Origin: Eledone cirrhosa
Lineage: Eukaryota
Direction: 5' to 3'
DNA length: 64,000 bases
Assembly: GCA_964016885.1 (NCBI GenBank)
Contig: OZ024745.1
Location: 39,494,001-39,558,000, forward strand
Shown here in pieces: positions 30,361 through 60,329 of this stretch (its first letter is position 1; every line of letters starts with the position of its first letter). Both the position numbers and the translations under genes were made by a program. Below the pieces are notes generated by a model. The model saw only the letters and a program-made list of their open reading frames with translations. It was not told the DNA's origin and ran no database searches.

Positions 30361-31692
30361 TGAAAATTAGAATTTACATTTCACAATAATACTAAGAGCG
30401 AATAGGTATATTATAATAGGTATAAATAAACGTTTGCTTATGGATGGTTGGATGATATATATGTCTTCTAGTGAGCGTCCAATAAGATCCGTAAATCGAT
30501 GAAAGATGTTGATCATTCGTTCATATTAAAGCGAAATTCGTATTTTCTTGGATATTTACATATTAAATATTAAATATTTGTTTCATTCTCTTTTAAACAC
30601 TGAATATATTCAGATATAATTCTACGATCCTCTTCGGCTGCTAGCGCACTATTTAATAAGATATGGAGGGAGAGAAAGAGAGAAAGAGAGAGAGAGAGAG
30701 AAGTAGAATGAGAGAGAGAGAGAGAGAGAGAGAGAGAGAGAGAGAGAGAGAGAGAGAGAGAGAGAGAGAGAGAGAGAGAGAGAGAGAGAGAGGGGCTAAA
30801 ATGTAGCCATGATGTAGCAACATCAGATATAATACTTTCTTCAACATCATTATTAAATAAATATGTATATACATCACCTGTTGATTGTCTTTCTATGACG
30901 TATGAAAGATAATGCACGACGTAAACGAATGAAATAGAGGCTTACACAGGCGTGTATAATTTCATAAATGCATAATGCATCTGTCTGCGGCATATATGTT
31001 TATGATTTATAAATATGTATGCTTCCATGTATATCTGAATACATACACACACATATGTATATATATATATATATATATATATATATATATACATATATAC
31101 ACACACACACACACATAAATATATATATATATATATATATATATATATATATATAATATATATATATGTATATATATACATAAATATATATATATATATA
31201 TATATATATATATATATATATATATATATATATATATATATATATATATATAGAGAGAGAGAGAGAGAGAGAGAGAGAGAGAGAGAGAGAGAGACCGATT
31301 TCCGTCAAATCGGACCGAAGAAACGGTGTTTACGTCGGTTTTTCCAGTTGCTAATAATATCTATCGGTCTCAATTCCAGGTAGAAGGAGCAATAGTTCAA
31401 GGACATAATGCATCGCCCGGTCCAAGTATGTATATATATATATAAATGAAGTATTTCCGTAGGAAAGGTAAAGGAAAGGAGCGTGCTCTATGTATGTCAC
31501 AGAGCTATTTAATTAAGTACTAAAAATGAGCGATTTCAGACGTCTCTGTTGAGCTCGTCTGTCTTCGTGAAACTTTGGTAAATGGAATAATTGTCTTATG
31601 TTGTTTATTACATAATTATATATATATATATATATATATATATATATATATATATATATATATATATATATATATATATATATATATATATA

Positions 31693-32145
31693 TCGGCTTA
31701 TCTCCCCTGTTAGCTGAGATCAAAGTGAGTGAATTTGTCACTACTTTAAAACAATAGCTTACGGTCTTCAAAATGCTTTTAATTAAGCATAAAGTGTATT
31801 GCGAAATACATTATATATATACATCCATATGTATATTGCTATTTCAGAGCTCCAATTCTAATTTTTAATTTCTGCCTTACCAACAACCGCTCTGCATAAT
31901 CAGCTCCTGATTATTTACTAGATTTCTATAAGAATATAACATCAATGACCTCAGTAGACAGGTGGGGTAGTTGGCCTTGATAAGCTTCAACCAAAGCGAA
32001 ACAAGTCTTGTCGGCTTATCTCTCCTGTTTGGTGAGATCAAAGTGAGTGAATTTGTCACTACTTTAAAACAATAGCTTACGGTCTTCAAAATGCTTTTAA
32101 TTAAGCATAAAGTGTATTGCAAAATACATTATATATACATCTATA
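31693..32145 (+). mobile_element. Diverged ~318-bp retrozyme relative (~1.4 units) in (TA)n
   Basis: Terminal ~135 bp directly repeated (31693, 32011); shares GCTATTTCAGAGC, AATTTCTGCC..CAACCGCTCT and GGTCTTCAAAATG with the 310-bp array. Confidence 0.75.
31973..32016 (+). ncRNA. Degenerate type I hammerhead ribozyme
   Basis: GGCC-UUGAUAA-GCUU(CAACCA)AAGC-GAAA-CAA(GUC)UUG-UC-GGCU; stems intact, CUGAUGA core mutated at two positions. Confidence 0.65.
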
Positions 32146-32174
32146 TATATATATATATATATATATATATATAT

Positions 32175-32510
32175 ATATTTGGGGAGGGTCATATTTGTGT
32201 AATATTGTCAGAATTAATAACAGAACACACTCAATGCAACGGGAGGATATAATAGCACCACTGCCGATGTTGTAGATGTGCAACAAAAGAACTTTGATGA
32301 ACTATATATATGTATTTGTGTCTATATTGTATCTGTATTTTTGACCGTTGGTCAGCCAATGGCAACATTGAGGACCGAATAAATTATATTACCGATATAA
32401 AAGTCACAGAAGCGAAAATCGAAAACCAACCAATCAGTGATATGACCCTCCCCAAGTATAACAATATTTGTTTCGACACAGGATTTCATATCAAAAACCT
32501 AGCAAAACTA
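32175..32510. mobile_element. Orphan, diverged PLE 3' repeat (pLTR) with short inverted arm
   Basis: 32233-32510 is homologous to 50120-50400 and the complement of 44631-44680; 32175-32232 is an inverted copy of its distal part; (TA)n flanks. Confidence 0.8.
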
Positions 32511-56800: not shown

Positions 56801-57310
56801 CAGAATGTATGACCCTGACAGCAGAGCTCAAGTCGTTTCGACGGGTATTTCTGGACTCTGACTCTCGGCTTGAGCTCTGCCGTAGGGGTCATACATTTTC
56901 TTATTACATACTCTACTACCTTAAATATTGAGTACTCTGGTGCGTTATGGTCCATCTGGTTCCTTACCACAACTCCTTCGTTATCTAGCTCCTACATCCG
57001 TAGTTGAGCACTTTCGATCCTACCACGCCATATCCTGACTTTTCCACCCAGCTCAAGTTTCATTACCCACACCATGCGGGTCGAGAAATAGCCGTCGAAA
57101 CTGTTTGAGCTCTGCCGTCGGGGTCATATATCCTATTACCCACTCTACTATCCTAAGTATTGACTAATTTCGTGAGTTACGGTCCAACTGGTTCCTTACC
57201 ACAACTTCTTCGTTATATATATATATATATAACGGAGGAAATTAGGTAAGGAACCAGGTGAACCATAACGCACCAAAGTACTCAATACTTAGGGTAGTAG
57301 AGTGGTTAAT
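56801..57310. mobile_element. Family B repeat: inverted arm, ~1.5 tandem ~232-bp units, inverted distal fragment
   Basis: TTCCTTACCACAAC at ~56960 and ~57192; inverted pieces at 56801-56850 and 57230-57310; (TA)n flanks. Confidence 0.8.
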
Positions 57311-57359
57311 ATATATATATATATATATATATATATATATATATATATATGTGTGTGTG

Positions 57360-59705
57360 AATAAACTAATTCCATCGGAAAAGTCCAGGAAAAAAGAGTG
57401 CTCTATGTAGGCAACAGAGCTTAATTATTATTATTATGTAATAAACAACATAAGGCAATTATTCCATTTACCAGTGGCTTCTTAAAAGCAAAAGGTTTTG
57501 CTTTCAATCCTCAGAACGGAAAAATCCTGGTTTGTTTATTGAATTTGGATTACAAACAAAAATGCAATCTATATGAAAGTGAGGCTGGAGAAGGGAGAAG
57601 GAAAGGAAAAATAAAATAAAATAAAACTACGCATACAAACACACACACAAAAAAACCCAAGCATGCTTACACACACATACATATATACATATATATATAT
57701 ATATATGTACGCATACATACATACACATACACATATATATAAAACGTACACTTACATACACAAACACATATATATACACATATACACATACAAACATTAA
57801 TACATATACACACACGCACACACACATACACACACACACGCATATCCACACACACATATATATGTACATATATATATATATATATATACATATATATACA
57901 TATACACACATACACATACACACACATACACATGTGTGTGTACAAGCATACACATACACAAACATAGCCATACACACACACATATATATACACATACATA
58001 CATTCACACAAACATACAAAACGTACATACATACACATACATGAATGCACTCCTCTACATATTCACACACGCAAATAAATATAAGAAAAAAAAAATATAT
58101 ATATATATTTTAAAAATGTTTGACACCGATACATGACCCAGCTAACAGGACAGACACGCGTGGTAAGTAATACACACAAAAGCACGTATACATACGTACG
58201 AAATAGTAAACACATACACACACTCTCATACATAAATATACATAAACAAATACAAAAACACATACATACACATGCATACACAAACACGCACACGTATACA
58301 TATTAAACACACACACATATGTATATGTAATTATACACACACACACACACACATATATATATATATACAAAACTATAAAAATATAAACGCACACACACAC
58401 ACACACACACACGCGCATATACGTAAACACACGCACAACCAAATACAAATACACACACACGCACACACACACACACAACCACACACACACATATACATAA
58501 AAAAATTATAAATACACACACACATATACATACATACATATATATATACACACACATATACACACATACGTACATATACACATATGCATACACATACACA
58601 CACACATATACATGTGTGTATGTGTGAAACTCAGTATTAGAAAAGACAAATGAACCTTACATAAACGTATATATAGTAGTAACGTTATAAAGCAACATAA
58701 GGCAATTATTCCATTCACCAGGGGTTTCTTAAAAGCAAAAAATGTTTCCTTCAGTCTTCAGAATGAAAAAAATGAAAATGAAAAAAACCTGGTTTATCCA
58801 CATATACATACATATACACACACAAATATACATATATATACACATACACATACACACACATACATATATATATATATATATATATACATACATATATATA
58901 CATACATATATACATATATATATATATACATATATATATATATACATATATATATACACACAAAAATACATACACATATGCATAGGTATGTGAAGGGCAA
59001 AACAAAAAGAATATATGGGGGGGGGCTAAGAGGAGGTAAAATATAAGGGGAGGTAAGGGAGAAAAAGATTTTGTAAATATACAAGAGTACAGAAGGTAGA
59101 ATCAGCAAAATAAAAACCGTAGCAGAAGTAAAGAGCAGGGAGGGAGTTCAATGCGGTTGATTTATCATAGGAGTGTCAATCCAGTTACAGATCAGATGCG
59201 ATTTCAGATGAGGACAGCATCTGAAGATCTCAGTCTTTGAGTTAAGGCAAGCGGAAGTGGCTCTCAAGTTTAGCAAAATCCTATACTTTTCTGTGGTGCA
59301 CAAAGAACAATTCTTTGTGCCCCTTTGGTACTCGCTCGAATGGTCTAATATAGACCAATCAATAGAGTACGGGATATTACTATCCTTGAGATCCCAATAT
59401 GTGTATGTGTATGTATGTATGCGTACATATATATATATATATGTATATATGTATGTGTGTGTAAGTATGCTTGGGTTTTTTTTGTGTGTGTGTTTGCATG
59501 CGTAGTTTTATTTTATTTTATTTTTCCTTTCATTCTCCCTTCTCCAGCCTCACTTTCATATAGATTGCATTTTTTGTTTGTAATCCAAATTCAATAAACA
59601 AACCAGGATTTTTCCGTTCTGAGGATTGAAAGCAAAATCTTTTGATTTTAAGAAACCACTGGTAATGGAATAATTGCCTTATGTTGTTTATTACATAATA
59701 ATAAT
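57360..59705 (-). mobile_element. 5'-truncated Naiad-like PLE with inverted 3'-end copy
   Basis: Coding remnant at 59148-59396, CA/TA-rich 3' region with a partial direct repeat (58690-58800 versus 57445-57535), and ~300-bp inverted repeat 57428-57735 / 59397-59705. Confidence 0.75.
59148..59396 (-). pseudogene. C-terminal part of a PLE GIY-YIG domain (Naiad-like)
   Basis: Manual translation: WDLKDSNIPYSIDWSILDHSSEYQRGTKNCSLCTTEKYRILLNLRATSACLNSKTEIFRCCPHLKSHLICNW...H*; it lacks a start codon so is not in the ORF track. Confidence 0.8.
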
Positions 59706-60329
59706 ATATATATATATATATATATAAACGGAAAAGAAAATGCTGACAAATTGTTCACAGTGAAAATTAGTTTAATTAGGAATAAGTGAAAATTAGTAAT
59801 AGTATGTGTCAGTATTCAGTTTTGGTTTGAAGTTTTACCGGTTACGCATTTCTAATGCTTTTAAAAAATAATTTTGAGATAGAGCGTCCGTGATGTTTGC
59901 TCTAATCTGATTAGTTTTAGAAATTCTACCTGTTTTTATGTGGAAAAAGTGGCTCCAGAGGTATATATATATATATATATATATATATATATATATATAT
60001 ATTTATTTTTCTTACATGATGATATTTGTAGATGCAGTGTTTGTTAAAGGTCAAAGTGAGATAGATGTTGAATAATTCTATTGAAGCGTGTCAAGACATA
60101 CACAGTTGACGAGGAAAGCATTTCATGAAAAGAAAAATACAAACATATCTTGAATGAACGATATAAAATATCAATAGAACGGGCATGAGTTACATATCAC
60201 ATTCAGGTCTTCACTGAGTTTGTAGTAAAGAATATGTCATCTACAGCATTTCAATAGTAATATATGTTATTCGACTGGTACAACAAAAATAAATTATATT
60301 CCTAGAAGTATATTCCTCTTATAACTCAT

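Follow-up and report, generated by a model that had tools for sequence, protein, structure and literature searches.

Penelope-like elements (PLEs) with an endonuclease are known to carry pseudo-long terminal repeats (pLTRs), as well as an adjacent inverted, 5'-truncated copy with a tail at one end (Craig et al. 2021, PMC8557442). A preference for (TA)n has been described for their Naiad, Neptune and Hydra clades, and the supplement of the same paper lists a (TA)n-targeting Hydra family from octopus. For the inverted copies, self-priming has been proposed (Arkhipova et al. 2013, PMC3846280), while PAc, a Poseidon element of Anolis, cuts and extends both strands of an AT-rich target in vitro, the tail being delimited by two neighboring start sites inside the template and a dimer being predicted (Frangieh et al. 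2024, PMC11167929). LINEs or PLEs have been named as mobiliser of the metazoan retrozymes without long terminal repeats (non-LTR retrozymes; Cervera and de la Pena 2020, PMC7229834); co-occurrence and the likeness of ribozymes and pLTRs made PLEs the likely one there and in Li et al. (bioRxiv 10.64898/2026.07.22.740005). The present analysis concerns 64,000 nucleotides of the Eledone cirrhosa genome (assembly GCA_964016885.1, contig OZ024745.1, positions 39,494,001 to 39,558,000, forward strand; hereafter, the window), in which PLE ends and retrozymes occur together as head-to-head insertions in (TA)n repeats. It is probable that these insertions arose from a PLE reverse transcriptase (RT)/GIY-YIG enzyme that cuts both strands and primes at each end, and that both retrozyme families use the same machinery.

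Two-site footprint of the head-to-head insertions

All ten units named in the original prediction are present, and self-BLAST together with reading of the sequence assigns them to six families, where at least five had been expected: A (31445, 57360), B (32175, 44631), C (35556, 41457, 56801), D (41918), E (37478, plus a copy at 31693 that was absent from the earlier list) and R (38163). As predicted, the 3' ends face outward in 10/10 units, all of which are head-to-head. An inverted arm had been claimed for each; true palindromes are found in 7/10, of which 37478, 41457, 41918 and 56801 have a palindrome score that beats 200 shuffles, and 38163, 44631 and 57360 were picked up by self-BLAST. 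The other three (31445, 32175 and 35556) are inversions of pieces largely without overlap, and their self-inverted scores do not surpass those of shuffled sequence (p 0.69, 0.09 and 0.57, respectively). The TA-rich bounds also hold in part: (TA)n adjoins both ends in 8/10 units, the exceptions being 35556, where about 56 nt of other sequence precedes the right tract, and 32175, which ends in a short TA run followed by (CA)n.

Each of seven families (A–F and R) has two 3' end sites, which are family-specific and lie 39–80 nt apart, the arm that reaches the distal site (site 2) bearing a tail (41 nt in R, 46 nt in E and 46 nt in B) that the arm ending at the proximal site (site 1) lacks. Pairs were counted if they were head-to-head, had (TA)n on either outer side and left a gap of no more than 45 bp at the junction. 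One proximal and one distal end were found in 78/83 such pairs over all families, with two same-site and three unclassified pairs: 12/13 in B, 16/16 in D, 1/2 in A, 15/15 in F, 6/7 in R, 10/10 in E and 18/20 among incidental C pairs. Without family C the total is 60/63 after removal of two duplicated loci (L220 being equal to L207); with them, E stands at 12/12 and the total at 62/65. The C pairs selected by query were kept out of the 78/83, and 28/28 of them obey the rule. At the junctions, the arms either overlap by a few bases or are separated by short inserts. One (TA)n tract holds a chimera (L028:1430-1822), in which a C arm running to site 1 is joined head-to-head with a B pLTR arm running to site 2.

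The two retrozyme families are tandem and non-coding, with units of 310 bp in R (G–C content about 35%) and 316 bp in E, and with hammerhead cores recognized by eye and by regular expression. Both agree with non-LTR retrozymes in the features examined (unit of 170–400 nt, G–C content under 45–50%, type I hammerhead motif). Searched against Rfam, E gave only a sub-threshold HH9 match and R gave none; the Rfam scan of the window yielded nothing above threshold, the sub-threshold microRNA-like matches stemming from palindromes and simple repeats. The RNA of R is predicted to be highly self-paired (z -3.64 against 100 shuffles). R and E are homologous to each other (p 0.001), and R has no detectable sequence in common with the pLTR of PLE-B, the PLE of the window (p 0.24), as had been noted before. 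Comparison of R with the PLE-F pLTR, which has the hammerhead core in common with it, was only suggestive (p 0.04), and the similarity of E to F was not significant.

The R loci retrieved by search are head-to-head in 9/9 cases. Their 3' ends fall into two narrow windows (23/24), though the unit holds 36 TA dinucleotides, and 43/44 of the E 3' ends form two clusters (one duplicated locus being counted twice). The 5' ends are scattered round the unit, and clustering at the cleavage site is weak (up to 30 nt downstream of it in 6/26 for R and 5/44 for E). Within a locus, R arms diverge by 0–1.6%, compared with medians of 1.2–4.2% between loci, and the partner arm is the nearest relative in 8/10 cases. 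A 9-kb retrozyme palindrome (L091, G000:C10:25726453-25735540) consists of 19 + 10 units, and 26/27 whole units are identical across its arms. At 37478, the two arms are 80% alike, whereas a different locus matches the left one at 91%; these arms probably derive from two templates.

The genome was sampled in 85 stretches of 10 kb at round coordinates of large contigs (850 kb), with a fold-back defined by an arm of at least 30 bp and a spacer of up to 150. Of the 83 local fold-backs obtained, 43 adjoin (TA)5+ with at least one arm end, whereas random placement would give about 2.8%; 27 touch the repeat with one end and keep the other 16–120 bp from it (0.5% expected), and only four adjoin the repeat at both arm ends. 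The 3' ends lie at (TA)n in 69/94 PLE-type segments versus 9/156 segments of the commonest short interspersed nuclear element (SINE), and the direct pairs in the sample are head-to-head in 14 cases versus tail-to-tail in one. Fold-backs near (TA)n in unique sequence, which would have spoken against the original prediction if equally common, are rare: they were found in 41/518 (TA)n flanks with a match elsewhere and in 2/323 without one (p 4e-7; 13.8-fold), where "no match" refers to the loci compared and true uniqueness may differ. The window is a dense example of a pattern spread over the whole genome; its target tracts, around and between the units (31431..59725), number 2.7 per kb versus 2.1 per kb in the sampled stretches.

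The same ends recur in independent short-read data. Public contigs from four runs and three studies pile up over the solo piece of the PLE-C pLTR, and show site 2 followed by (AT)n in 4/4 runs, ends at site 1 in three runs, and, in a single run, joints between opposite strands where the start is inferred. For R, one run has loose ends followed by TA-rich letters at 39223 and 39251-39254, and another has them at 39249; no strand-switch joints for R were seen among the contig matches listed. R is covered to very great depth in run X2. At the level of family contig ends, the scars are not an assembly artefact.

Judging by their sequence, families A, C and D are the ends of protein-coding PLEs, two of the Hydra type (A and C) and one of the Neptune type (D), and parent open reading frames (ORFs) were found for A, B, C, D and F. 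Two parts of the original prediction have to be given up here: the supposed non-ribozyme satellites A, C and D have coding parents, A even possessing an intact hammerhead core (from 59619), and the pattern does not belong to a single PLE system. Since at least five protein-coding PLE families show it, the window PLE is not singled out as the retrozyme enzyme.

Origin of the head-to-head insertions

By analogy to the in vitro results for PAc (PMC11167929), a PLE RT/GIY-YIG complex would cut both strands of (TA)n, and each end of the break would prime one complementary DNA (cDNA) at an internal start site of its own. Two cDNAs from two target ends are favored because the no-tail arm reaches further in a part of the pairs, arm lengths are uncoupled on long or tandem templates and two-template cases exist. 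Both arms would usually be copied from one RNA, since R arms match better within loci than between them and nearly all whole L091 units are identical. The 3' ends of the cDNAs would then be joined by microhomology-mediated host repair; this step is suggested because the head-to-head junction of one retrozyme locus holds a 56-bp insert (L250:8527-8582) copied from a family C element that lies some 750 bp off, a private variant included. The short family C hairpins may reflect run-off at the transcription start, and the retrozyme arrays rolling-circle copying. As the retrozymes carry the two-site head-to-head scar, their copying by Penelope enzymes is likely, and the original prediction that both ends of a (TA)n target prime in the manner of PLEs, with retrozymes on the same route, gains support from the counted rule and the uncoupled arms. 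A wider statement is put forward tentatively, at somewhat less than even confidence: animal retrozymes would move by PLE twin internal priming on one RNA circle, with a fixed site for each end and joining of the rolling cDNAs, the same rule would explain all PLE head-to-head insertions, and the genome would hold some 150,000 TA-abutting palindromes (extrapolated to 3 Gb from the 43 in 850 kb).

Several observations weigh against priming at both ends by PLE enzymes. In PMC11167929, cut DNA and start site proved to have no homology and the start sites did not differ between strands, whereas the present insertions have short overlaps of TA-like sequence and are strictly asymmetric. The rule is broken by L014 and L227, and three pairs could not be classified. 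The E partner arm is the nearest neighbor at only 3/9 loci, and no PLE that uses the R or E 3' module as its pLTR was seen among the rows listed behind 106 endonuclease matches. In the sample, 35/83 fold-backs have no nearby (TA)n, and the commonest SINE yields a few fold-backs as well (two head-to-head pairs). Most loci come from best-hit searches, with a bias to young copies. Lastly, the coupled inner ends of family D (rho 0.73, 15 pairs), as well as the 8-nt offset and shared TA of the 2.9-kb palindrome in the window, fit snap-back copying too.

According to the snap-back or self-priming explanation, one cDNA (or antisense RNA, PMC3846280) folds and is copied back, and trimming of one end by the endonuclease leaves the tail on one arm. 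Besides the junction of the window PLE-B and the D inner ends, it is favored by offsets within 20 nt in 23/62 pairs and by minor variants common to both arms. It requires the tail arm to contain the other arm, and the no-tail arm reaches further 5' by more than 20 nt in 22/62 pairs. Among near-identical long PLE-C copies, tail arms of 63–329 bp stand opposite arms of 1.8 to more than 15 kb, with unrelated inner ends at 10/11 loci; later central deletions could mimic some older cases. Together with the insertions from two templates (L028, 37478), this makes snap-back unlikely as the general mechanism, and possible as a minority route. Growth of the retrozyme arrays where they stand, through unequal crossover at a PLE end and with no circle or multimer being copied (bioRxiv 10.64898/2026.07.22.740005), would agree with the duplicated E loci L207 and L220, which differ by about one unit, so that copy number can change after insertion; it is quite unlikely in view of dispersed loci with both priming sites at the outer ends, multi-unit arms on both sides and near-identical units, and the endonuclease matches mentioned above gave no parent PLE among the rows listed.

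The notion of one master enzyme, with the window PLE-B mobilising all units as its ribozyme and non-ribozyme satellites, draws on the target and footprint common to all units, on R and E tails that are as long as the B tail, and on the single C-B chimera. It is very unlikely, considering that A, C, D and F have ORFs of their own, PLE-C being intact and abundant (802 candidates), that tail length varies by family and that R shares nothing with the B pLTR. Generic fragility of (TA)n, where breaks at TA cruciforms are repaired after insertion with fold-back duplication of neighboring sequence, could account for a TA-centred inversion of near-unique sequence at 53815-54455, for the 4/43 TA-abutting fold-backs without another match, and for the templated junction inserts, which point to host repair. 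For the families studied it is largely refuted already by the excess of fold-backs in repeat flanks, by fixed ends and polarity that are specific to each family, and by the scarcity of TA-centred inversions (two in 850 kb), and a major contribution is highly improbable. Chimeras of long reads or of the assembly at (TA)n hairpins might be suspected from the 99.9% likeness of the PLE-B arms in the window. Arm ends that differ according to the family rule, the many pairs only 70–97% alike, and the public contigs from three studies with the same ends and, in one run, opposite-strand joints leave this explanation a practically negligible chance.

Parent elements and units in the window

Element B has a single ORF, in which the RT (RVT_1, E=1.7e-4, below the Pfam cut-off) is followed by a GIY-YIG-type domain. 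The latter has no match to Pfam GIY-YIG, and its Y, YIG, R, H, E and N columns align with those of element D, the endonuclease of which matches PF01541 at 1.4e-7. Both B and D contain a CX2-5CxxC linker (CX4CxxC in B) and a CCHH motif; compared by eye with the rows of Fig. S2 in PMC8557442, the short spacing of B appears to be of the Nematis type and the long spacing of D of the Neptune type. B further has a pLTR with a hammerhead core, partial tandems, and an inverted truncated copy with a one-sided tail. In the window, its left arm (44631..47538, minus strand) comprises a 5'-truncated RT/GIY-YIG-type ORF, the pLTR with the hammerhead core and the 46-nt tail, whereas the right arm (47531..50397, plus strand; hammerhead core at 50152-50179) has no tail. 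The two arms differ by two substitutions and one indel over 2,860 bp. The N-terminal part of full-length PLE-B includes a long AAC/AAT-rich stretch (L100:3300-3680; L102:5950-6350), which resembles the Asn-rich inserts of rotifer PLEs (PMC3846280). The second B unit of the window is a solo pLTR (32178..32518) with a 58-bp no-tail arm on the minus strand and a tail-bearing arm of about 260 bp on the plus strand.

Family C is the solo pLTR of a tandem Hydra-type PLE of 3,531 bp with a 717-aa ORF, which was reached via L062. Its RWR, DKT, CNCPDRSIC, CNLC and CKH motifs match Hydra-1_Obim by eye and agree with the features of the Hydra clade (RWK-type motif, DKT, CxCX5C linker, no CCHH, C-terminal CxxC and CxH); in size, a soft feature, it exceeds the usual range of less than 3 kb. 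The CUGAnGA core is absent from its pLTR, which contains a U3-A8 core whose stem-loop II is long, a variant described in PMC4209133. In 34/42 sampled segments, PLE-C ends at (TA)n. Of 802 candidates, the best 40 match at 99–100%, as would be expected after a very recent burst. L131-L132 (G000:C1:437198000-437214000) holds four or more near-identical copies in tandem, and the one translated has an intact ORF. The best 30 family C loci have a common center, and (TA)n flanks the insertion on both sides in all of them. In short copies, the arm starts within -8 to +12 of one position in 36/40 incidental arms, 29–30 nt past a TATA-like box, and this common start may be the transcription start of PLE-C. 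A fixed hairpin element copied whole was considered for family C, and was ruled out by the parent PLE and the varied junctions.

The three C units of the window are a solo pLTR without palindrome (35559..35677; short minus-strand arm at site 1, plus-strand tail piece at site 2), a solo fold-back (41459..41643; 53-bp minus-strand arm at site 1, 132-bp plus-strand arm at site 2), both arms of which begin a few bases past the TATA/Inr-like site of the parent, and a unit at 56800..57213, where a short inverted arm joins a partial tandem of pLTR, 5' untranslated region (UTR) to ATG, and pLTR. A separate C tail piece on the minus strand (57232-57308) lies beside the last.

Family A, with a canonical hammerhead core as in F, follows a GIY-YIG-type C-terminus inside the window, and its placement in the Hydra clade is based on a 38% tblastn match. 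The tail arm of PLE-A (57351..59396, minus strand) consists of this endonuclease C-terminus (59396-59208), a microsatellite-rich 3' UTR, the pLTR and the tail; the no-tail arm (59397..59712, plus strand), 96% like it, carries the intact core. The solo A end at 31445..31616 combines an inverted tail piece (31445-31515, minus strand) head-to-head with a sense piece that runs to site 1 on the plus strand, and forms no palindrome. Family D comes after a partial RT and a GIY-YIG domain, both of the Neptune type; no hammerhead core was present in the 1.3–1.5 kb of its 3' UTR that were examined. Its solo fold-back (41921..42077) has a 57-bp no-tail arm on the minus strand and a 95-bp tail arm on the plus strand, and an additional D arm (59720..59960, minus strand) starts at site 1. 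Family F, found in the sampled stretches, is the end of another Hydra-type PLE, whose protein is known here from its C-terminal 466 aa.

Retrozyme R is composed of a no-tail arm (38167..38678, minus strand; 1.65 units, site 1) and a tail arm (38677..41418, plus strand; 8.8 x 310 bp, site 2), every unit of which contains a type I hammerhead motif, for example at 39048-39090, with predicted cleavage after 39084. The E retrozyme at 31693..32141 (plus strand) holds about 1.4 units of 316–318 bp, starts 3 nt past the predicted cleavage site, ends at site 1 and has a U3-A8 hammerhead core near 31963-32029 (Rfam HH9, E=0.11, sub-threshold). In the E-type fold-back at 37451..37789, the left arm (minus strand) includes a hammerhead core and the tail, and the right arm (plus strand) has no tail.

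Other repeats were observed in the window as well. The inverted duplication at 53815-54455 (about 77–81% alike) consists of near-unique sequence around a central (TA)n, its other matches covering the low-complexity part only, and represents a class distinct from the PLE scars; one of the two TA-centred inversions in the sampled 850 kb lies beside a B-like end. Older inverted repeats (79–82%) are found at 50763-51080 and 51126-51194, with two and 16 matching loci, respectively, among those compared. Further TA-bounded repeat families with many loci are represented at 37846-37982, 50453-50596 and 44143-44384, and the first two also occur as fold-backs in the sampled stretches. The commonest SINE, whose tail is of the RTE type, forms occasional head-to-head fold-backs (17645-17881 and L297:6651-6771) that have (ATT)n flanks and arms ending at one place, with no tail on either arm. 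Two tandem copies (92% identical) of an endonuclease/RT long interspersed nuclear element (LINE) occupy 19700-23465 and 25730-29497, a frame of 715 codons that includes a CCHC-like motif lying in front of the latter, and two broken non-LTR RT elements with RVT_1 matches lie at 4354-6698 (minus strand) and 14144-17570 (plus strand).

Comparison with known systems

In LINE-1 twin priming, both target ends prime on one RNA, the 3' ends point outward and microhomology occurs at the inner joint; the pieces are not known to overlap, and the starts are the poly(A) and a variable internal site. In the insertions described here, by contrast, neither site varies and most arms overlap each other, which results in palindromes.

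Compared with the PLEs of PMC8557442, the tails are longer (39–80 nt versus 30–40 nt), and the rule is counted over seven families. On the origin of head-to-head PLE copies, PMC3846280 proposes self-priming and PMC8557442 calls for an in vitro system; the uncoupled arms observed here argue against self-priming. With respect to PAc (PMC11167929), each end uses a different site here and the target is (TA)n, and inverted genomic copies and retrozymes are not treated in the text consulted of that study. A young, intact Hydra-type protein in the same genome, combined with start sites that are precise to the base, provides exact substrates for an in vitro test that would separate the models. A caution also follows for such genomes, in that abundant small "hairpin repeats" are solo PLE ends and no new satellite families.

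R and E resemble the retrozymes of PMC7229834 and bioRxiv 10.64898/2026.07.22.740005 in that their tandem units are low in GC, measure about 300 nt and carry a type I hammerhead. A word search of the main text of both papers returned neither inverted insertions nor two fixed 3' ends, and no account of retrozyme fold-backs or of TA-flanked palindromes in cephalopods was found in the literature covered, which was incomplete and left most subscription papers outside. The mobiliser of animal retrozymes is stated as an open question in PMC7229834, and the PLE two-site footprint, which is seen here on the retrozymes themselves, bears on it. Inverted copies, the one-sided tail and the preference for (TA)n are already published traits of PLEs (PMC8557442, PMC11167929); the new part is the counted two-site rule, together with the same footprint on two families of tandem retrozymes.

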